A stretch of DNA of 64,000 nucleotides from an uncultured Atopobium sp. (GTDB lineage Bacteria > Actinomycetota > Coriobacteriia > Coriobacteriales > Atopobiaceae), in assembly GCA_963535155.1 (NCBI GenBank), contig CAUSVW010000006.1, forward strand, positions 3,847-67,846, written 5' to 3'. The notes beneath the pieces were generated by a model. The model was not told the DNA's origin, ran no database searches, and saw nothing but the letters and a program-made list of their open reading frames with translations. A program made the translations under genes and the position numbers. Below are positions 3,573-27,901 of the stretch, in pieces (positions within the stretch are counted from its first letter, which is position 1; every line of letters begins with the position of its first letter).

Positions 3573-3715
3573 AGGTGGACCCCTTCCAAAACGGGGCCCC
3601 GGTCAACATGGTTGCTGCCAGAGTGCCAATACGTGGGCTTCTCTACTCGGAAACTTACATGCTCTCGGGGGCCAACAGATACAGTGCATAGCTTGACGCC
3701 ATACGGGCAATAGGA

Positions 3716-3754
3716 TAGCGCTCTTCGGCTGATTAAACAAGCCAAAGAGCGCTA
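3716..3754 (-). terminator. Probable terminator hairpin after the HMA-domain gene
   Basis: TAGCGCTCTT...AAGAGCGCTA inverted repeat. Confidence 0.55.
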
Positions 3755-3827
3755 CTTTGCACAGCTATTACGCAAGTTTTACAAAATTTCTTCAAAGTTT
3801 GTTTCTTGCGAGAAGATCTTGTTGTGC

Positions 3828-4220
3828 TTACGCACGAAGACGGTAGCCTTCTTTCTCTACGGCAGCTCGGTACGCATCGACATCAATTGGATTTTTGCTG
3901 AGGATACGTGCCTGACCACCAGCTAGAGTAACCTGCGCCCATGTTCCCTCAATACTATCGAGAGCTCGAGTCACATGATTGACGCAGTTCTGGCAAGTCA
4001 TACCACCAATCTCAAATGTTTGAACATAAGGGTAATGAGATTCATCTTTGTCTTCTGGACCATCTGCAGCAGAAACCTGCTCTGTGTTACAGGTAGTAAC
4101 ACCTGTTCCTTCATCAGAGCAGCAGCCTTTTTTACCTGCAGCAATTCCGTAAACACGATAAACCGCAAAACCGCAAAGCGCTACAACAGCAAGAATAACA
4201 ATGATATTGATTGGTGACAT
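3828..4220 (-). CDS. Membrane-anchored heavy-metal-associated (HMA) domain protein with a Cys-rich N-terminal part
   Basis: N-terminal TM helix followed by KKGCC (like FeoB-associated Cys-rich proteins); GMTCQNC HMA motif. Confidence 0.85.
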   Translation of the reverse strand: MSPINIIVILAVVALCGFAVYRVYGIAAGKKGCCSDEGTGVTTCNTEQVSAADGPEDKDESHYPYVQTFEIGGMTCQNCVNHVTRALDSIEGTWAQVTLAGGQARILSKNPIDVDAYRAAVEKEGYRLRA

Positions 4221-4329: not shown

Positions 4330-4734
4330 TTAAGCAGAAAGCTTTGCACCAAGGCCGCGAAGAGCCTCAAGAGCATCGTCATCTGGCTCAAGGTTGCAGA
4401 TAAAAGTCTCAACAACGTTGACACCCTCTGCTTCAGCATTCTGCTTCCAAGTCTCCATCCAGTCGCCGGTTCCCCAGTCGTAAGAACCAAAGAGAGCGGT
4501 TGGCTTCTGACCAAGCTTGCCAGCGCAATCGTTGAAGAGCTCCTCAAAATCAGGATCAAGCTCCTCGTCACCCATAGCAGGGCAACCAAAAGCAAATGCA
4601 TCGTACTGATCGCACATATCTGCAGAGAACTCAGAAGACTCAATAGCCTCGGTGTCTGCAGCACTTGCAAGCTCTTTTGCCATTGCCTCAGTATTGCCCG
4701 TCATGGACCAATACACAACTGCTACTTTACTCAT
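4330..4734 (-). CDS. Flavodoxin (short chain)
   Basis: YWSMTGNTE FMN loop, FGCPAMGDE, FGSYDWG. Confidence 0.95.
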   Translation of the reverse strand: MSKVAVVYWSMTGNTEAMAKELASAADTEAIESSEFSADMCDQYDAFAFGCPAMGDEELDPDFEELFNDCAGKLGQKPTALFGSYDWGTGDWMETWKQNAEAEGVNVVETFICNLEPDDDALEALRGLGAKLSA

Positions 4735-4818: not shown

Positions 4819-5565
4819 TTATGCAACCTGGCGTTTCTTGGTATTGCCATACGATGAGAGAATCTGCGCTAAAGATTCCCCTTGATAAAAACGATGCTTG
4901 CACTGATCTTCTGCATCTTTAAGTCTCTCGAGACGCAGGCGAGTTTCTTCCGTGTTGTCATAGACTTTCCAAGCACCAGTAAAAAGCTCAGACTGTCCAT
5001 TCATAAAGCCCTGAACATCAGCAAGTGGATAGCCCAGTACCAGTCCAATCTCGTGCGGAAACGCAGCTTTTCTTGCATGAAAAGCAAAAATTCTTGAACG
5101 CATGCTCTTCATCAACGCCTGCACTGACTCAGTGGAATGGCCAAAGGCAGCCAGAAACTCACGGTGCTCTGATTTGGCGAGAATATCCTCAATAAGCTCA
5201 GGTCTATAGGCAACAAACGTCACCTTTCCGCCAGAAATAGCAGAGGTAGCAAGGAGCGTTACCCCAAACAGTGAGAGCTCGTGAGTAGCGTTGCATAGAA
5301 ATGACCTCAACGTTGGATCAGTGCAGACAAGGCTTGCACAAGAGCTACAAGACTTATGAGAAGCAAATGAAAAGAGCGCAGCCGGCTTAACGTGAGCAAT
5401 AACACCAGCAGCACAGCGAACAAATGTTGTTGCAAAATCGTGACAGAGCTCGGGAGTATACGCTCTCTCACCCTCATTGAATGCAGACTTTTTATCAGCG
5501 GAATATGCATAGGGAGAAGGAACGTCTAGGAGCGATGAATTCTCAAAAGAAGTAAGACAATCCAT
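4819..5565 (-). CDS. DUF3793 family protein
   Basis: CAAGVIAHVKPAALF and FPHEIGLVLGYPLADVQGF..WKVY motifs; typical position upstream of flavodoxin. Confidence 0.8.
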   Translation of the reverse strand: MDCLTSFENSSLLDVPSPYAYSADKKSAFNEGERAYTPELCHDFATTFVRCAAGVIAHVKPAALFSFASHKSCSSCASLVCTDPTLRSFLCNATHELSLFGVTLLATSAISGGKVTFVAYRPELIEDILAKSEHREFLAAFGHSTESVQALMKSMRSRIFAFHARKAAFPHEIGLVLGYPLADVQGFMNGQSELFTGAWKVYDNTEETRLRLERLKDAEDQCKHRFYQGESLAQILSSYGNTKKRQVA

Positions 5566-5584
5566 ACCGTACTTGCTCCCTTCT

Positions 5585-5729
5585 TAAAAATGCGCCGCCG
5601 ACTAAAAGGGAGCCGACGGCGCCTGGATTCCGGACCCTTGGAGAGGGGAAAGGTTCCGGGCTGATAAAGTAAATTTGTTAGAACTAGCACCTGTTACATA
5701 AATCCTTAACAAGTTAACCTTTTCTAACT
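5585..5729 (-). ncRNA. Candidate metal-regulated sRNA or leader RNA (copy 1) with a CCCUCUCC loop and terminator
   Basis: Promoter TTGCAA-16-TACACT; hairpin CCGGAACCTT-[TCCCCTCTCC]-AAGGGTCCGG; GC-rich terminator followed by AUUUUU. Confidence 0.5.
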
Positions 5730-5763
5730 ATCTAAAGTGTAAGCCTTAGCTAACTAATTGCAA
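5712..5763 (-). promoter_or_regulatory. Sigma-A-type promoter overlapped by two palindromic metal-repressor (DtxR/MntR-like) boxes
   Basis: -35 TTGCAA (5763-5758), -10 TACACT (5741-5736); boxes AGTTAACCTTTTCTAACT (5712-5729) and TGTAAGCCTTAGCTAACT (5738-5755). Confidence 0.6.
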
Positions 5764-5878: not shown

Positions 5879-8047
5879 CTAGACAGCTTGCCCATCTGTC
5901 AGAAGCATTTTTACCTCAGAAGGAACATTAGGGTTATGAGCTGCAGTGGTAAGCAGTGACCTTGTGTTTGCAAGCGTTACCATAAGTGTCAGAAGATTGT
6001 GCATATATGCAGCAGCACTTACGGTAATAAGACCTGCAACGCCTGCAGCAATGAAAGAGCTGTTCAGCGCAACAATTGTGCGATAGTCGGCGTGAATCCT
6101 CTTCATTACCTGCTGGCCTAAAAGACGCATGATTACCAGCGATTCAAGCGAATCATTCTTAATCGAAATATCCGCAACTGCGCGAGCAATATCAGTTGCA
6201 TCAGACAGAGCCAGTGAAACATCAGATACGGCTAGTGCAGGTGAATCGTTAATACCATCGCCTACCATTGCAACGGTGTAGCCCTCCTGCTGGAACTTCT
6301 TAACATACTCGCACTTATCCTCTGGGAGAATCTGTGCCACATAGTCATCAAGACCAAGCTTCTTAGCAACACTTGCTGCAACGTTTTCTGAGTCGCCAGT
6401 CAACATAACCATACGCTTAACACCAAGAGCACGGAGCTGCGTAATAGTTGCTGCTGCATCTTCCCTTACAGGATCGGTAATACAAATTGCTGCAATAAGT
6501 TTTGAATCCTCGGACATAAAGATAATGGACGAGGTTGGAGCAATCTGTGCAAGGTCGTCTTGAATTCCCTCGGGCATTGGGGTCTTCTCGTCATCAAAAA
6601 TGAAGTGAGCTGAGCCAATGCAGACCTCTTTGTCGTTAACCTTGGTACGAATACCGTGAGCAACAACATACTTAACCTCTGCGTGGAACTCGTCATTGTG
6701 CTTGAGGCCACGTACCTTTGCCTCGTTCACAATTGCTCGAGCCATGCTGTGTGGGAAGTGCTCCTCAATACATGCAGCAAGACGCAGAAGCTGGTCCTCG
6801 GTGCGACCACAGAAGCTGACAATGCACTCAACATGTGGAACTGCCTTTGTCAGCGTACCGGTCTTATCAAAGACGATAAGATCAGCCGCAGCGATCTTCT
6901 CGAGGTATTTTCCGCCCTTAACCGTCATGCCAAACTTAGCTGCCTCATCCATTGCGCTACCCACTGCAACAGGAGTGGAAAGCTTAATGGCGCAGGAATA
7001 GTCAACCATAAGAACGGTCATAGCCTTAGTGATGTTTCGGGTAATGCCCCAAATACCAAAGAAGGCGAGGAAGCTGTAAGGAACCAATGCATCAGAAAGG
7101 CGCTCTGCCTTAGACTGTGCGCCAGCCTTAAGCTCAGCAGACTGCTCAACCATATCAACAATATTGTCGATACGAGACATTCCTGGAGGAGCAGTGACGC
7201 TTACCATAAGGTCACCGTCTTCAAGGGCGGTGCCTGCGTAAACGGTTGAACCAGGCTCTTTGGTAACAAGGCGAGACTCACCTGTCATGGCGGCCTCGTT
7301 CATCTGGCCAATGCCTTCAACAACTTTGCCGTCAACAGGAAGAACGCCACCAGCGCGCTGGTGCAAAATCATACCCTTCTCAACCTCAGAAAGGGCAATC
7401 ATAACGTCCTTGCCGTCAATACGAGCCCAGACGTTCTCAGAACGAGTAATTAGGCCATCACGAAGTGCAAGACGTGCTCGGCTTGCCACGTGGTTCTCCA
7501 TAGCAGCAGACAGCTCAAGCAAGAACATGACGGTAGAAGCATCTGCCCACTCATTCCTCAGAATAGAAGTGGTAATTGCAGTTGCATCCAAAACCTCAAC
7601 AGTAAGTTCTTTCTTGAGAAGGCGCTTAACGCCTTCTACGACAAATGGAATTGCACGGAGAATGACATAGGTGTAGTTAGCAACTGCAGGCAGTGGCAAA
7701 AAACGTATAATCCAGCGGCGTGCGAATGTGGTCACAACCTCCATCTGGAAGCGATTGTTCTCAAGAGCCATCTCAATTGAGCTACAGAAGTCCTCAAGAC
7801 CTGCCTCTTCTTCTCGTGGCAAGTTCAAGACATCAAAAGCGCCAACAGCCGCAAGTACCTGATCTCTCTTGAGAGGGTCAAACCTTAGCAAGAGAGAACC
7901 GTTTGCCATGTGAACTTCAGCGTGACGAACTCCGTCAACACGCATCAGCTCATAAGAAATACCACGGGCTTCAGCCTCATCAATATGACCCAGGTCGCAT
8001 TTTGCACGAATGCGACCTGAGATTTCATTAGTAATTGTAAAGCGCAT
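5879..8047 (-). CDS. Heavy-metal-translocating P1B-type ATPase (SCA motif type)
   Basis: TGES, DYSCA transmembrane motif, DKTGTLT phosphorylation site, HFPH, GDGINDSPAL. Confidence 0.93.
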   Translation of the reverse strand: MRFTITNEISGRIRAKCDLGHIDEAEARGISYELMRVDGVRHAEVHMANGSLLLRFDPLKRDQVLAAVGAFDVLNLPREEEAGLEDFCSSIEMALENNRFQMEVVTTFARRWIIRFLPLPAVANYTYVILRAIPFVVEGVKRLLKKELTVEVLDATAITTSILRNEWADASTVMFLLELSAAMENHVASRARLALRDGLITRSENVWARIDGKDVMIALSEVEKGMILHQRAGGVLPVDGKVVEGIGQMNEAAMTGESRLVTKEPGSTVYAGTALEDGDLMVSVTAPPGMSRIDNIVDMVEQSAELKAGAQSKAERLSDALVPYSFLAFFGIWGITRNITKAMTVLMVDYSCAIKLSTPVAVGSAMDEAAKFGMTVKGGKYLEKIAAADLIVFDKTGTLTKAVPHVECIVSFCGRTEDQLLRLAACIEEHFPHSMARAIVNEAKVRGLKHNDEFHAEVKYVVAHGIRTKVNDKEVCIGSAHFIFDDEKTPMPEGIQDDLAQIAPTSSIIFMSEDSKLIAAICITDPVREDAAATITQLRALGVKRMVMLTGDSENVAASVAKKLGLDDYVAQILPEDKCEYVKKFQQEGYTVAMVGDGINDSPALAVSDVSLALSDATDIARAVADISIKNDSLESLVIMRLLGQQVMKRIHADYRTIVALNSSFIAAGVAGLITVSAAAYMHNLLTLMVTLANTRSLLTTAAHNPNVPSEVKMLLTDGQAV

Positions 8048-8050
8048 GAA

Positions 8051-8353
8051 TTATGCCTGTGCGCCCTCTGCGTCGACCTGCTTGGTAACCTCAGCGCGGA
8101 TACCCTCCTCGAGTTCAGCAAGGCGAGCGCGAACTGCAGCGTCAATCTTGGACTCACGGCGAGCCTCTGCGACAACGTCGTTAGCCTCGTCAACAACATT
8201 CTGAGTCTCTGCGGAAACGCGGTCAGTTACGCGAAGACCACATGCAGTTGCCTTGACAGCTGCCTTGTGAAGAGTGCCGTTAGAAGCAAGACCAGCAACA
8301 ACGCCAGCAAGTGCAGCGCCACCGGCTGCGAGACACCAATTGTTCAGTTTCAT
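8051..8353 (-). CDS. Small DUF6110/DUF1490-like accessory protein of the metal ATPase
   Basis: N-terminal Gly/Ala hydrophobic helix, HKAAVKATACGLR, coiled-coil C-terminus; 3 bp upstream of the ATPase. Confidence 0.65.
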   Translation of the reverse strand: MKLNNWCLAAGGAALAGVVAGLASNGTLHKAAVKATACGLRVTDRVSAETQNVVDEANDVVAEARRESKIDAAVRARLAELEEGIRAEVTKQVDAEGAQA

Positions 8354-8645
8354 AAAAATCCCCCATCTGCTTTTTGCAAATTAATCGGTTAATGACATAT
8401 TGAAGATACGGGTTTTTTGACGAGAAAACAAGTGAAAATCATTACTAATTGGTTATCCTAATGAAACAATTGTACACAAGTAATTTCTTACCTGCGAAAA
8501 CGTTTCCTATGGTTAGCCATGGTGTACATATAAATTTTGTGAAGAAGCTGCTCTAAGGCGTTACTTAAATATTTGATATCATGTTCATTTGGATTAACAA
8601 ATTAATGAAACATAACACCTCCTCTGTGCTCATACTATGAAATTT

Positions 8646-9853: not shown

Positions 9854-11026
9854 ATGACCCAATCACAGGTAACTATAACCTCTTCTGAACGTGAAACCGC
9901 CATTGTACGCACTAGCGCCATTGGCATTACAGCCAATGTTGCACTTGCGGCATTCAAAGCAGCTGTGGGCATTTTATCTAACTCGATTGCTGTTACTCTT
10001 GATGCGGTGAACAATCTCTCCGATGCAATTTCATCAATCATCACCATTGTGGGAACCAAACTCTCTAACAAAAAAGCTGATCGCGAGCACCCCTTTGGAC
10101 ACGGACGCATCGAATACATCACTACAACAGTAATTGCTGCAATCATTATGTATGCAGGTATCTCTTCACTTATTAAATCTATCCAAGACATCATGGATCC
10201 TGTTACTCCAGACTATAGTCCCCTATCTTTAGTCATCATTGCAGTAGCTGTGCTCGTAAAGATTATTTTGGGTCACTACGTCCGCTCTGTAGGTAATCAG
10301 GTAAACTCCGACACCCTTATTGCTTCAGGCTCTGACGCACTTTTTGACGCTACACTCTCCACTTCTGTTTTAGCAGCTGCGCTTATTTTTATCTTTACGG
10401 GGATTAGCATTGAGGCATACGTAGGTATTGTTATCTCTGTATTTATCATTAAAGCTTCAATTGAGTTGTTACAGGGGTCTATCAAAGAAATTATTGGAAT
10501 GCGTCCCGATGCAGCTCTTTCAACGCTCATTTATGATGTTGTAAAAGATGATCCAGATGCAGAAGGTGTTTACGACCTCATTATCCACAGCTATGGCCCA
10601 GATAAATTTGTTGGCTCATTTCATACTGAGGTTCTTGATACCACTTCAGCTATTGAGATTGATACGATGACTCGTCGCCTGAGTACAGAGATTTACAAGC
10701 AGACATCAGGCAAAATAATCATTGCTGCCATTGGTATTTATGCGAGAAACACTACCGATGATCGCATTGTAAAAATGCGTACTGAAGTAACTGAAATGGC
10801 TTTAGCTCATGAAGGTGTTCTTCAAGTTCATGGCTTTATTGCTGACATTGAAAACCAATTTATGGCCTTTGATGCAGTCATTGAGTTCGGCTATGACGGT
10901 AAGCAAATCGTCCACGATATTATTCATGAAGTAGAGGCAGCCTACCCTGACATGAATGTCTCGGTTCTTTTGGACCGCGATACAAGCGATCTTTCTGAAC
11001 ATGAAGAAGACAGAGACTTGCACTAA
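9854..11026 (+). CDS. Cation diffusion facilitator (CDF) transporter
   Basis: DAVNNLSD, ADREHPFGHGRIEY, six TM segments and a C-terminal dimerisation domain. Confidence 0.92.
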   Translation: MTQSQVTITSSERETAIVRTSAIGITANVALAAFKAAVGILSNSIAVTLDAVNNLSDAISSIITIVGTKLSNKKADREHPFGHGRIEYITTTVIAAIIMYAGISSLIKSIQDIMDPVTPDYSPLSLVIIAVAVLVKIILGHYVRSVGNQVNSDTLIASGSDALFDATLSTSVLAAALIFIFTGISIEAYVGIVISVFIIKASIELLQGSIKEIIGMRPDAALSTLIYDVVKDDPDAEGVYDLIIHSYGPDKFVGSFHTEVLDTTSAIEIDTMTRRLSTEIYKQTSGKIIIAAIGIYARNTTDDRIVKMRTEVTEMALAHEGVLQVHGFIADIENQFMAFDAVIEFGYDGKQIVHDIIHEVEAAYPDMNVSVLLDRDTSDLSEHEEDRDLH

Positions 11027-11044
11027 AAGCAGGTAAAAACATCC

Positions 11045-11166
11045 TAAAAAAGGGGCGAGCCGCTGACACCCAGAGTCAGCGGCTCGTGTTCTACGCTCGC
11101 AAGAAAGGGAGAGGGTCTTTCTCCGAGCTACGGGAACCTGAATAAAGCAAGCAAGTAAATTGCTTA
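11045..11166 (-). ncRNA. Candidate standalone metal-regulated sRNA (copy 2) with a CCCUCUCC loop
   Basis: Promoter TTGTAA-17-TACTAT containing an operator; three hairpins, the middle one with loop ACCCTCTCC; 12-bp terminator stem CGAGCCGCTGAC/GTCAGCGGCTCG then CCCCUUUUUU; no downstream gene on this strand. Confidence 0.55.
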
Positions 11167-11171
11167 AAAAC

Positions 11172-11200
11172 ATAGTAAGTTAACCGTGGGAAACTTACAA
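11172..11200 (-). promoter_or_regulatory. Promoter with a metal-repressor box in the spacer
   Basis: -35 TTGTAA (11200-11195), -10 TACTAT (11177-11172); palindrome GTAAGTT-AACCGTGGGA-AACTTAC. Confidence 0.6.
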
Positions 11201-11379
11201 GAATCAATTCAGTTTTTTTATCTAATTTCGTAAATTCTACAAAAAGTTAGACTAAGTTTACATGTCTATGGATTTTTATCTTATATCAAGAAAGTCCGAG
11301 ATAAACGTGTATTCTCGCCCTTGTTTTTGAATGACCTTTTCAAACATACCTGCCTCTGGTGCACTGTTAAAATTGGCAC

Positions 11380-11413
11380 AAAAAATCCCCCGCGCCGAAT
11401 TGGTACGGGGGAT
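11380..11413 (-). terminator. Terminator after feoB
   Basis: ATCCCCCG...CGGGGGAT stem with a U6 tract on the minus strand. Confidence 0.8.
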
Positions 11414-11441: not shown

Positions 11442-14102
11442 TTATGCCTTTGCAACCTCGGTAAGGTTGGTAAGGATCTTGTCGTCCTTCTTATCCCACT
11501 TTGGAGCAGGACGGAAGAGCTGGAAGAGAATTGCTGCCAAGAAGGCAAAAGCAATAACAGTCCAGATACCAAAGGAACCAAGAACGAAGAACTCCCAGAA
11601 CTGGTTGATGATAAGACCAACAATCCATGCAAATACGCACTGATAGCCAATAGCAAACCAGAACCACTTAGAGTCATTCATCTGACGACGGATGGAACCA
11701 ACTGCAGCGAAGCAAGGTGCATCAAGCATATTGAATGCAACAAATGCGCACATTGCACCAACGTGAAGAATGCCACCAGCATCGGTGAACATACCAGCGA
11801 AACCAGACCACATAGTAACGGACTTCTCACTTGCATCGCCAAGACCGTAAAGAACACCAAAGGTAGAAACTAGGTTCTCTTTTGCAATCAGAGCAGAGAT
11901 GGAAGCTGCAGTTGCCTGCCAGTTTGCAAATCCAAGAGGAGCAAAGATAACGCCAATGAAGCCACCAACAGCTGCAAGCAGGGAGAAGTCCATGACATTC
12001 TCAGGAGCGCCCTCGATGCCTGGAAGGTAACCAAAGACACCGTTTGCACCCTCCCAGGTTGCCCAACCAAAGTTGGAAAGAACCCAGATACCAATAGCTG
12101 CTGCGAAGATGATGGTACCAGCCTTAAGGATGTATGCAGAGATACGCTCCCAAACATGCATTGCCCAAGACTTGATAGAAGGCATGTGGTAATCAGGAAG
12201 CTCCATAACAAATGGTGCAGGCTCGCCCTCAAATGCCTTAGTCTTCTTCAGCATGATTGCAGAAATAACAATCATTGCAACGCCAAGGAAGTAGAAAGCA
12301 GGAGCAACCCACCAAGCAGAAGTGCCACCAATAAGAACACCCATAACCAAAGCAATGATTGGCTGCTTTGCGGAGCAAGGAATCATGGTGGTGAGCATTG
12401 CAGTCATACGGCGGTCCTTCTCGTTCTCAATGGTACGAGTAGAAAGAACGCCAGGAACACCACAGCCAGAAGAAATCAGAAGTGGAATGAAGGACTTGCC
12501 GGACAGGCCAAAGCGACGGAACACGCGGTCCATAACAAAGGCAACACGGCTCATGTAACCGCAGTCCTCAAGGAAGCACAGCATGACAAAAAGAACAAGC
12601 ATCTGTGGAATGAAGCCAAGGACAGAGCCAACGCCGCCGATAATACCGTCAACTACAAGGCTAGTGACAACGGGGCTTGCGCCAGCACCTTCAAGAGCAC
12701 CGCGAGCAAGATCAGGAATACCTGGGACATACATGCCATACGCAGAAGCTTCTGGCTCAGTAGCAGCGCCTTCAACAGCAGTCTTAAAACCAGCGGCAGT
12801 TACGCCACCAAGAGTCTGGAGTTCCTGACCCTCAGCAAGAATTGGGTTGCCGTCAGCATCAAGCTTAAGAGGATTGTCGTCAGTATCAACGAAGTTGCCG
12901 TCCTCATCATGAACTGGTGCGCTCAGAGCAATAACGCTCTTCTTGGCAGTCTCTGCCTCAAAGCTGGTGATAGCGTCAGAATCCCACTGTTTAGCCGCGA
13001 TTGCAGCACGAACCTCAGTGGTATCAATACCAGCCTCGTCAGCTGCGTTGAGATACGCGTCAATCTGGTCACCATAGTGATGAGAGTCAAACTCATCTTT
13101 TGCCTCATTATACTCGGCGTCGCCGATACCCATGAAGTGGAAACCCTTGTCAAACAGGTTGTCGTTGACCCAATCAGTAGCTCCCGTACCAACGGTAGAA
13201 ATGGAGATGAAGTAAACAAGAGCCATGATGATGACGAAGATAGGAAGACCAAGGATACGGTTAGTAACAACACGGTCAATCTTCTCGGAAGTAGTCAGCT
13301 GCTTTGGAGCCTTCTTGACGCAAGCTGCCATAACGCCGGCAATCCACTCATAACGATCAGAAGTGATGATGGACTCAGCATCGTCGTCACGAGACTTCTC
13401 AACTGCAGCAATAATCTTCTCAAGCTCTGCGGTCTTCTCGGCAGAAAGGTTAAGAGGAGCAATTGCATTTGCATCGCGCTCAAAGACCTTAATGGAGTAC
13501 CAACGAGAAAGAGATGCAGGAGCAAGACCCTCGATTGCAGTAGCAATCTTGCCAAGAGCCTCTTCAACCTCTGGGGTAAAGCACTTAACACCCTCAGCAG
13601 GAGTTCCCTCCTGGCCAGCCTTAATTGCAGTCTTTACCAGAGTATCAATGTTCTTGTTACGAAGTGCGGAGACCTCAACAACCTCAACGCCAAGCTGCTT
13701 AGAAAGCTCTGCGGTGTCAATGACGTCACCAGACTCCTTAAGAAGGTCAACCATGTTTAGGCCAAGGACAACTGGACGACCAGCCTCAAGAATCTGAGTA
13801 GTCAGATAAAGATTGCGCTCCAGGTTGGTAACATCGAGAAGGTCAATGATGGCGTCTGGGCGCTCATTAATGAGGTAGTCACGAGATACCTGCTCCTCAG
13901 GTGAATATGGAGACAGAGAGTAAATACCAGGAAGGTCGACAAAGGTGACGTCCTTATCGGCACGCCAGTTTGCCTGCTTCTTCTCAACAGTAACGCCAGG
14001 CCAGTTGCCGACGTAACCGTTTGAGCCCGTAAGCTCATTGAATAGGGTGGTCTTACCGCAGTTTGGGTTACCTGCAAGACCAATAATAGTCTTTTGTGCC
14101 AT
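11442..14102 (-). CDS. feoB: Ferrous iron transporter FeoB
   Basis: GNPNCGKT, VGNWPGVTVE, DLPGIYSL, LEDCGYMSR, AKENLVST. Confidence 0.97.
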   Translation of the reverse strand: MAQKTIIGLAGNPNCGKTTLFNELTGSNGYVGNWPGVTVEKKQANWRADKDVTFVDLPGIYSLSPYSPEEQVSRDYLINERPDAIIDLLDVTNLERNLYLTTQILEAGRPVVLGLNMVDLLKESGDVIDTAELSKQLGVEVVEVSALRNKNIDTLVKTAIKAGQEGTPAEGVKCFTPEVEEALGKIATAIEGLAPASLSRWYSIKVFERDANAIAPLNLSAEKTAELEKIIAAVEKSRDDDAESIITSDRYEWIAGVMAACVKKAPKQLTTSEKIDRVVTNRILGLPIFVIIMALVYFISISTVGTGATDWVNDNLFDKGFHFMGIGDAEYNEAKDEFDSHHYGDQIDAYLNAADEAGIDTTEVRAAIAAKQWDSDAITSFEAETAKKSVIALSAPVHDEDGNFVDTDDNPLKLDADGNPILAEGQELQTLGGVTAAGFKTAVEGAATEPEASAYGMYVPGIPDLARGALEGAGASPVVTSLVVDGIIGGVGSVLGFIPQMLVLFVMLCFLEDCGYMSRVAFVMDRVFRRFGLSGKSFIPLLISSGCGVPGVLSTRTIENEKDRRMTAMLTTMIPCSAKQPIIALVMGVLIGGTSAWWVAPAFYFLGVAMIVISAIMLKKTKAFEGEPAPFVMELPDYHMPSIKSWAMHVWERISAYILKAGTIIFAAAIGIWVLSNFGWATWEGANGVFGYLPGIEGAPENVMDFSLLAAVGGFIGVIFAPLGFANWQATAASISALIAKENLVSTFGVLYGLGDASEKSVTMWSGFAGMFTDAGGILHVGAMCAFVAFNMLDAPCFAAVGSIRRQMNDSKWFWFAIGYQCVFAWIVGLIINQFWEFFVLGSFGIWTVIAFAFLAAILFQLFRPAPKWDKKDDKILTNLTEVAKA

Positions 14103-14347
14103 TAGGCTTCCTCTACCTTGTGAACGTCTACTACTTCAATGCTTGCAGCCTCATCCTTACGGATAGAAAGCTCGTAGCCACGAACTGTGAGCTCAATTGG
14201 GTCTCCCAGTGGTGCTACCTTTTTGACGTAAACCTCAGTGCCCTTAGTAAGGCCCATGTCCATAATGCGACGTTTCACGGCGCCTACACCCTTTAGCGCA
14301 GCAACCGTGCAACTCTCCCCCACCTTAACTTCTTTCAGAGTTGCCAT
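14102..14347 (-). CDS. feoA: FeoA
   Basis: RRIMDMGLTKG..APLGDPIEL.VRGYELSIRKDEA. Confidence 0.95.
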   Translation of the reverse strand: MATLKEVKVGESCTVAALKGVGAVKRRIMDMGLTKGTEVYVKKVAPLGDPIELTVRGYELSIRKDEAASIEVVDVHKVEEA

Positions 14348-14416
14348 AACCTTCCTTTCATCGAAACACGTATTAAAAGCCGCGGGTTTTACCAGCAGCG
14401 CAATACAACAAAGTGT

Positions 14417-14683
14417 TTAGAGCGGAGAAACCATGATGTGCGAAGACATCTGACGGTTCAGTCCTAGTCGTGCACCCTTAACGCTGACAATAACATCACC
14501 ATTGACACGTGAAATAACCTTTACCTCGGCGCCCTCAACAAAACCAAGTGTTGAGAGGTGCTGGCGAAGATCAGAAGCACCCTTAACCGTTACGATCAAC
14601 GCAGTCTCTCCCTCACCAAGCATGGCAAGAGGAAGAACTGGACCAGAATTCGCAGGACCCTGTGAGGTCTTTTCTGTATCCAT
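14417..14683 (-). CDS. feoA: FeoA domain protein (second copy)
   Basis: RQHLSTLGFVEGAEVKV..GDVIVSVKGARLGL; directly upstream of feoA-feoB. Confidence 0.88.
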   Translation of the reverse strand: MDTEKTSQGPANSGPVLPLAMLGEGETALIVTVKGASDLRQHLSTLGFVEGAEVKVISRVNGDVIVSVKGARLGLNRQMSSHIMVSPL

Positions 14684-14712
14684 GCATCCCCCAAAATAAC
14701 GTAGGCAAACTA

Positions 14713-14772
14713 AGTTTGCTCTTTCGAACTTTTACTTCATTAGTATCAACTAAAAGTTAAGGTAATTCAACT
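14713..14772 (-). promoter_or_regulatory. feo promoter region with tandem metal-repressor boxes
   Basis: AGTTTG-CTCTTT-CGAACT (14713-14730), CATTAG-TATCAA-CTAAAA (14738-14755), AGTTAA-GGTAAT-TCAACT (14755-14772); possible TTGAAT-17-GATACT promoter. Confidence 0.6.
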
Positions 14773-14791
14773 TTCATTTAACAATTAAACT

Positions 14792-27644: not shown

Positions 27645-27901
27645 GTCTTTTCAGCTGACCTGGTATTTGACCCCACACTCGCATACTGGAACGTTTGCTT
27701 TGCTACCGCAGCAGCTCCACTAGTAGTTCTCTCGCCTGCGAGACCCTTTGTCTCTTTGATATAACAGGCGGTATGGCTTACTTCTAGGACGAGCCATGAT
27801 CGTTTACGTGCGCACACGCAAACTTACGTGGATCCCTTTGACCTCGTCTGTCATGGACTAAAAGCTCACAGAGAACTTCGCAACCACAGACCTGAAAAGA
27901 C
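27645..27901 (-). ncRNA. raiA-motif RNA (large structured ncRNA)
   Basis: Conserved blocks GGUCUGUGGUUG, GAUCCACGUAAG, UAGAAGUAAG, GGCGAGAG, UUCCAG..GCGAGUGUGGGGUCAAAUACCAGGUCA; closing stem GUCUUUUCAG/CUGAAAAGAC; TATACT -10 at 27913-27908; comF / SBP / raiA context. Confidence 0.9.

Follow-up and report, generated by a model that had tools for sequence, protein, structure and literature searches.

The intergenic region between an iron-uptake operon (feoA-feoA-feoB) and a convergent cation-efflux (CDF) gene of an uncultured Atopobium sp. was predicted, from its letters and open reading frames, to encode a standalone iron-sparing small RNA (sRNA), raising the question of whether the region holds an RNA gene with targets elsewhere in the genome or only the terminator of the CDF gene. 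The region was analysed within the surrounding 64,000-nucleotide stretch of DNA (the window), within its genome assembly (completeness 85.7%; 1004 genes, 76% coding, by our own simple gene caller) and against other genomes. The genus of the window is taken here to be Lancefieldella and its family to be Atopobiaceae, in keeping with the record titles; FeoA is 100% identical to entries titled Lancefieldella parvula or Atopobium sp.

The element behind feoB and its paralogue

The minus strand beyond the feo operon carries a promoter-like sequence, a palindromic operator overlapping it and three hairpins, the last of which is an intrinsic terminator, at the places given in the original prediction, and no gene follows on that strand, the CDF gene converging on it (Table 1). 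A second operator box farther upstream had been overlooked, hairpin 2 has an additional basal stem (GUUC/GAAC), and hairpin 1, although present, showed no conservation beyond close relatives among the aligned loci. The predicted transcript of this copy (copy 1) would be approximately 120 nt long with its 5' end near 11165, as judged from the -10 position, at which relatives carry TATTAT, TATACT or TATTCT. A promoter scan did not have this promoter, with only 8/12 consensus matches, among its hits, and promoter-like sites were fewer in that scan than in shuffles (4 vs 7.9). Folding of copy 1 gave a z-score of -4.66, with 0/200 shuffles as stable, and the bases of the apical loop were unpaired with a probability of at least 0.99. 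The U tract occurs on the minus strand only, and the terminator loop is not C-rich, unlike that of most homologues. The feoB terminator, read from the sequence, was not in the list returned by a terminator scan of the window.

Table 1. Features of the two RNA copies and their surroundings in the window
Feature	Position	Strand	Remarks
Copy 1 of candidate sRNA	11046..11165	-	Matched by models R1 and R2
Promoter-like TTGTAA-17-TACTAT	11172..11200	-	TTGTAA 11200-11195, TACTAT 11177-11172
DtxR-type box 1, GTAAGTT-N10-AACTTAC	11175..11198		Palindrome
DtxR-type box 2	11242..11265		
Hairpin 1	11149..11165	-	Lineage-specific 5' part
Hairpin 2	11088..11137	-	Multi-tier stem presenting the loop; pairing kept, sequence varies
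Apical C-rich loop, ACCCUCUCC	11108..11116	-	9 nt; last 7 nt are the predicted seed
Intrinsic terminator	11046..11086	-	12 bp (11086-11056), then CCCC and U6
feoB terminator	11380..11413	-	Between feo operon and copy 1
feoA-feoA-feoB operon	11442..14683	-	Upstream of copy 1
Boxes ahead of feoA	14710-14733, 14752-14775		
CDF (cation efflux) gene	9854..11026	+	Neighbour, no fixed partner
DUF1490-like gene and P1B-type ATPase	5879..8531	-	Box at 8508-8531
Copy 2 (paralogue core)	5582..5670	-	DUF3793 starts 17 nt on
Copy 2 loop, CCCCUCUCC	5648-5640	-	
Copy 2 terminator	5622-5592	-	
Two boxes for copy 2 and DUF3793-flavodoxin	5709-5732, 5735-5758	-	Matrix matches
Promoter-like TTGCAA-16-TACACT, same operon	5763-5736	-	
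DUF3793 gene	4819..5565	-	Directly after copy 2
Flavodoxin gene	4330..4734	-	Iron-free stand-in for ferredoxin

Copy 1 lies in a metal-gene cluster, with the feo operon upstream and with CDF, MarR and glutathione peroxidase genes convergent, which goes on with the DUF1490-like gene, P1B ATPase, DUF3793 and flavodoxin. Of the 30 loci aligned, the window and 6 others have a segment of ~69 nt (~11313-11381) separating the feoB terminator from the upstream box, which is missing from most of the remainder, and in one genome (L031:3060-3180, G028) short TCACAAC-type repeated words were seen between feoB and the RNA. Two sequencing runs, selected with the window and only guessed to be of RNA origin, yielded short contigs at 10892-11121 and 10960-11101, from which, as they carry no strand or end information, nothing is concluded.

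A paralogue core (copy 2), also missed by the original prediction, lies at the head of the DUF3793-flavodoxin operon and has a weaker fold (z = -1.2 over 5570-5705). The description 'standalone' is thus appropriate for copy 1, whereas other copies of the family run on into DUF3793-flavodoxin or are located in 3' UTRs. Judging by its arrangement, copy 2 might give rise to the sRNA upon termination and to the flavodoxin mRNA upon read-through. The copy 2 terminator loop can pair over ~10 bp with the DUF3793 ribosome-binding site (RBS; 5576-5611, minus strand). Following the flavodoxin gene there is a 130-aa open reading frame (3828-4220, minus strand) with a membrane N-terminus, a CC pair and a CxxC motif, which has no Pfam or NCBIfam match at the thresholds used and probably belongs to the same operon. 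In another locus, the flavodoxin gene and its RNA copy are duplicated in tandem (L190:3009-3111 and 3668-3769).

The RNA family and its operators

A BLAST-type DNA search recovered copy 1 in 32/35 genomes of the same genus and in 0/24 from other families, and a loop-based pattern was present in 62/67 Lancefieldella genomes; outside the genus this Lancefieldella-specific pattern gave 15/204 hits, near the level of the reversed control, and the one such hit inspected sits inside a coding region. Close relatives carry near-identical copies, and in two genomes (G028 and L043) the stem of hairpin 2 is rewritten and the loop kept. Loci anchored on feoA from records titled Olsenella, Atopobiaceae and Atopobium have the same order of box, promoter, hairpin and terminator. 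A model built from Lancefieldella copies alone (R1) recovered six Olsenella-type copies at rough E-values of 3e-5 to 6e-3, and a model built from 15 non-Lancefieldella copies (R2) matched 51 of 80 hand-picked family genomes at E<=0.01 and 45 at E<1e-5, a set which includes one training genome and four matches (G060, G065, G071 and G089) that were left uninspected. Several genomes, the window's among them, have two or more copies.

A MAFFT alignment of the Lancefieldella and Olsenella types placed the terminator out of register, and a model-guided alignment was therefore used. In the resulting 75 rows (alignment A7), 95.4% of 1513 cells were paired and two-sided changes occurred in 21/21 pairs, compared with 0/500 shuffles and a score of 0.60 vs at most 0.11 when slid, figures that lean favourable because the alignment was fitted to the model and its rows are related. 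Three of these rows (L120, an antisense hit in L104 and a loop-less copy in L191) are included in this test and in model R3 but not in the counts given below, which refer to the other 72 copies. The 7-nt loop core was kept in 71/72 copies, with stem columns conserved at 35-89%, so the C-rich loop is conserved, as predicted, and effectively invariant within covarying stems. A C run is present in the terminator loop of 63/72 copies, and a U tract follows on the strand of the RNA in 68/72, compared with 16 on the opposite strand. This strand bias, together with the varied neighbours described below, rules out that the element is only the terminator of the CDF gene. It is a member of no Rfam family: a scan of the window at gathering thresholds found only a tRNA and a raiA motif RNA (27646-27900, minus strand, 172 bits), both elsewhere in the window, and all seven hits of an E-value scan of six loci were far under the family thresholds.

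Outside the family, the loop pattern was found in 0/358 genomes, and R2 gave weak hits in 4/80, of which the best, the only one inspected, lacks the loop. R3 matched 23/40 such genomes at E<=0.05, but the loop core was found in only 5 of 30 inspected R3 hits (three further family members, L212 and L225), and the other 25 look like bare terminators. These misses do not show absence, because the first pass scores only 50-100 candidates per genome. The one convincing copy outside the family (L212:1501-1611, plus strand) is a full copy in another family (f3) which has no box by the matrix used, and its regulator may differ. In L384 (near 1378, minus strand) and L225 (near 1531, minus strand), the seed core was seen in the 9-nt loop of a lone terminator hairpin, one of the two lying ~120 nt past feoB; these hairpins are possibly minimal forms of the RNA, or chance. 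The flavodoxin and feoB loci of five genomes, comprising four in which the RNA was not found plus G048, mostly had boxes but no full copy.

A matrix for the operator was built from seven seed sites as a 24-bp palindrome and refined on 13 sites of the genome itself, giving the consensus AAAGTTAG-N6-CTAACTTT. Its core, TTAG-N6-CTAA, is spaced like the single-dimer IdeR site, a 14-bp sequence with the consensus TTAGGNNNNCCTAA in the accessible text of its description (PMC8464063). The top hits in the genome, from which the 13 training sites were drawn, lie upstream of feoA, two ZnuA-family ABC systems, a FecCD ABC system, an ABC-exporter pair, an NMT1-like binding protein, a hemerythrin-domain protein and the P1B ATPase operon, with further top hits at DUF3793-flavodoxin, pyruvate formate-lyase (PFL; box at G000:C3:19482, gene at C3:17115-19271) and rubrerythrin.

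In the 170 nt upstream, 55/72 RNA copies (7 of the 55 being Lancefieldella copies close to the training set of the matrix) have a box scoring over 12 bits, compared with 10/420 control windows. The 17 copies without a near box follow a stop codon (enolase 8, flavodoxin 6, feoB 1, other 2), and for 15 of these the fetched DNA contains a box farther upstream, before the host gene or operon. Downstream, 21/72 copies face a convergent gene (gpmA 13, rmuC 4, CDF 4), 19 lead directly into DUF3793 on the same strand, 5 are followed by enolase, 5 by other genes, and 22 have no assignment. As the downstream neighbours vary, the element follows the regulon and not one neighbour, and the DtxR-like character originally proposed for the operator appears to be borne out by its single-dimer spacing and by its travelling with the element through different neighbourhoods. 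The enolase gene is boxed in several Atopobiaceae (L160, L186, L197, L199, L200, L202 and L203), ~1.35-1.46 kb upstream of an RNA copy that lies right past the enolase stop, often with DUF3793 behind it; enolase is an unexpected constituent of a metal-starvation regulon.

The loop complement at ribosome-binding sites of iron proteins

The complement of the 7-nt loop core, GGAGAGG, occurs within 25 nt upstream of 18 of the 1004 called starts, compared with 210 starts for GGAGG in a similar zone. By Pfam and NCBIfam, the 18 genes include those for pyruvate:ferredoxin oxidoreductase (PFOR), ferredoxin, an NfnA-like Fe-S flavoprotein, rubrerythrin and two Fe-ADH-family enzymes, along with endonuclease III (Nth), RlmD and acyl-CoA dehydratase activase, which we take to be Fe-S proteins from their Cys motifs and general biochemistry. 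Glycerol dehydrogenases are often zinc-dependent. Iron proteins thus make up 9/18 genes with the site compared with 2/60 random genes (p = 1e-5), the latter having been scanned at 1e-15, not 1e-8, with 19 staying without a name; by Pfam name alone the count is 6/18 (p = 0.0015). The other nine have no iron link. Among genes flagged by iron-protein motifs, 7/40 have the site compared with 11/964 others (p = 2e-6), and GGAGAGG ranks first of 251 7-mers for this set, although the test is biased because the motif list was drawn up after the hits were seen. The 33 flagged genes without the site include those for radical-SAM proteins and AdhE, which fits selective sparing, yet is also a miss. Allowing one G-U pair, a [FeFe]-hydrogenase-like gene, PyrK and PurF also fit. 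The enrichment at iron-protein RBSs is consistent with the anti-Shine-Dalgarno character that had been ascribed to the loop.

The site is also conserved at orthologous starts. It was present for PFOR in 49/57 (counted by eye, in a search of 80 genomes), for the NfnA-like protein in 19/29 and for rubrerythrin in 11/30, compared with 1/168 control starts over seven gene sets (feoB 0/43, feoA 1/60, flavodoxin 0/29, enolase 0/14, glutathione peroxidase 0/5, P1B 0/13, CDF 0/4). However, the PFOR site was also found in 10/11 family genomes in which the RNA was not found and in 13/19 genomes of other families, in only one of which an RNA copy was found, and its conservation therefore need not depend on the RNA; either diverged RNAs were missed or the site was simply inherited. 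The NfnA-like site was found in 18/19 genomes with the RNA compared with 1/10 without, a split that is confounded with kinship because the genomes without the RNA are also more distant. At the loci L368-L375, from genomes in which the RNA was not found, the site at the NfnA-like RBS is mostly displaced by one base, which may point to a related RNA whose seed is displaced as well. The seed pairing extends over only 7-8 bp (~-14 kcal/mol), and the flavodoxin RBS, which has no seed site, reaches -13.7 when a bulge is allowed, which means that targets are not told apart by energy alone; if the RNA acts as proposed, its selectivity could come from the targets carrying a variant Shine-Dalgarno sequence present in fewer than 2% of the 1004 genes.

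Mechanism, alternatives and related RNAs

These observations are likely, on sequence evidence, to reflect a trans-acting iron-sparing sRNA under a DtxR-family repressor, encoded by a conserved structured RNA motif of Atopobiaceae that lies behind DtxR-type operators and presents a loop complementary to the RBSs of iron-protein mRNAs. The features of the iron-sparing class, namely a metal-repressor operator at the RNA's own promoter or host operon and a conserved single-stranded seed complementary to the 5' regions of iron-protein mRNAs, were both found; Fur control is not indicated, the operator having the single-dimer spacing of DtxR sites. In the proposed mechanism, the single DtxR-family protein of the genome, loaded with Fe(II), would bind the box, and iron starvation would switch on feoAB, the metal ABC transporters, flavodoxin, PFL and both RNA copies. 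Through its exposed loop, the RNA would then base-pair across 7-8 nt with the variant Shine-Dalgarno sequence on the mRNAs for PFOR, ferredoxin, the NfnA-like protein, rubrerythrin, Fe-ADH, Nth, RlmD and acyl-CoA dehydratase activase and block their translation, with canonical GGAGG or AAGGAG sites pairing less well. The box at PFL and the seed site at PFOR predict a switch from PFOR to PFL, and the net outcome would be a move from ferredoxin/PFOR metabolism to flavodoxin/PFL metabolism. A more tentative extension is that GGAGAGG is an address label on dispensable iron-protein mRNAs throughout the Coriobacteriia, read by one RNA family that is diverged or reduced to a single hairpin where the models are blind, and that in the DUF3793-flavodoxin leader copies one promoter would drive both the RNA silencing ferredoxin and PFOR and the replacement flavodoxin.

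The metal to which the repressor responds bears on when such an RNA would be made. It appears unlikely, though worth weighing, that the sRNA has the same targets but is governed by a repressor sensing manganese, or manganese and iron, and thus responds to a shortage of divalent metals in general or to oxidative stress. For the only DtxR-family gene of the genome (G000:C38:1540-1968, 142 aa), the best NCBIfam models are those of MntR, all under cut-off, and the closest solved chains are 5zr4 and 8pvt, manganese sensors thus being the best matches by both family and structure; two ZnuA-family ABC systems are boxed, and TroR of T. denticola is, by the title of its report, Mn- and Fe-dependent. 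In the alignment with the two chains the protein has Asp at the Met10 position, an MntR signature, but Cys at the Cys102 position, an iron-type ligand according to the accessible text of PMC10317159, and with this mixed signature the sequence does not settle iron vs manganese. Against manganese, the regulon includes feoAB, the FecCD ABC system and flavodoxin, the genes with the seed site encode iron proteins, and the only Fur-family protein has PerR as its best match (below cut-off), leaving the DtxR-family protein as the likely iron sensor.

Other alternatives dispense with targets in trans. A role of the element in cis, as a leader, an attenuator or a 3' stabilizing structure for boxed operons such as DUF3793-flavodoxin and enolase, with cases like copy 1 as leftovers, is improbable: the copies placed directly before DUF3793, the 15 placed after the stop codons of enolase, flavodoxin or feoB, and the pairing of the copy 2 terminator loop with its own downstream RBS (-17.5, rank 1 of the 15 leader-type copies) would all suit such a role, but the copies facing convergent genes still have the loop, box and promoter, the 15 leader-type RNAs pair no better with their own downstream 50 nt than with those of other copies (mean -11.2 vs -11.5), no riboswitch family of Rfam matches, and the complement at unlinked iron-protein genes is left unexplained. 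Still less probable is a strong terminator with a C-rich upstream hairpin, its match to GGAGAGG coincidental and the latter an RBS variant that strongly expressed anaerobic enzymes have inherited; the fixed loop core amid fully exchanged stems, the dedicated boxed promoter, the strand bias of the U tract and the first rank of the complement among 7-mers (in the motif-flagged set, with its after-the-fact motifs) all speak against this, despite C-rich terminator loops being common, as in the R3 hits without the loop core, and the PFOR site being class-wide. Invariant loops can be protein sites, but a protein-binding or sponge function of the loop is hardly credible given that base pairing better accounts for a loop exactly complementary to RBSs that form a functionally coherent set, and nor is an RNA encoding a peptide, an ATG-started open reading frame of at least 10 codons occurring in only 2/72 cores.

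The trans-acting sRNA reading has several parallels among described RNAs, compared here from the accessible text of the cited reports. IsrR of Staphylococcus and FsrA of Bacillus subtilis, the precedents named in the original prediction, are iron-sparing sRNAs whose exposed C-rich regions pair with Shine-Dalgarno sequences of iron-enzyme mRNAs, and in IsrR several hairpins and a terminator are accompanied by two repressor boxes (PMC9410917). The predicted working of the Atopobiaceae RNA is alike, but IsrR and FsrA are controlled by Fur and not through a DtxR-type box, their seeds are C runs whereas the 7-nt seed here, with two U, fits a specific Shine-Dalgarno variant, and their targets are TCA or nitrate enzymes whereas those predicted here are anaerobic ferredoxin-linked enzymes. 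Absent from those precedents was MrsI (ncRv11846), an iron-sparing sRNA of mycobacteria, likewise Actinomycetota. It has an IdeR site close to where it starts and, ahead of a terminator, a 6-nt seed within an apical hairpin loop; it is reported to be conserved in Mycobacteriaceae and Nocardiaceae, its seed includes G41 and its shown target is bfrA (PMC6016810). Its wiring is alike, although the Atopobiaceae loop contains no G, the reported ranges differ and the two were compared by description only. RsaC of S. aureus, regulated by MntR (DtxR family), arises by cleavage of the 3' UTR of an operon for metal uptake (PMC9294342), a placement resembling that of the copies behind enolase, flavodoxin or feoB stops; however, it spares manganese (SodA), whereas most Atopobiaceae copies have their own boxed promoter and predicted iron-protein targets. 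RyhB and PrrF share the logic of a metal-loaded repressor restraining an sRNA that silences iron-using enzymes (PMC9294342), but are Fur- and Hfq-dependent and proteobacterial, and the Atopobiaceae RNA has no Rfam match.

The RNA family is new and well supported, and of a functional kind already known, but its combination of regulator, seed and target is unusual. No prior description of the motif was found in the literature listings searched, although the supplements of large screens for RNA motifs could include it with no function assigned. The table of a 2022 review, in its accessible text, lists no sRNA for iron-sensing DtxR proteins (PMC9294342), and MrsI is the only precedent found, within the accessible sources, for an sRNA under an iron-sensing DtxR-family protein. 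If the proposed reading is true, it would provide an iron-sparing RNA for a class of oral and gut anaerobes, together with its regulator, operator, seed and a list of targets, in which RyhB-like sparing of PFOR, ferredoxin, Nfn-type proteins and rubrerythrin would be coupled to the induction of flavodoxin and PFL. It would also represent another independent origin of the RyhB logic, aimed in this case at fermentative ferredoxin metabolism.
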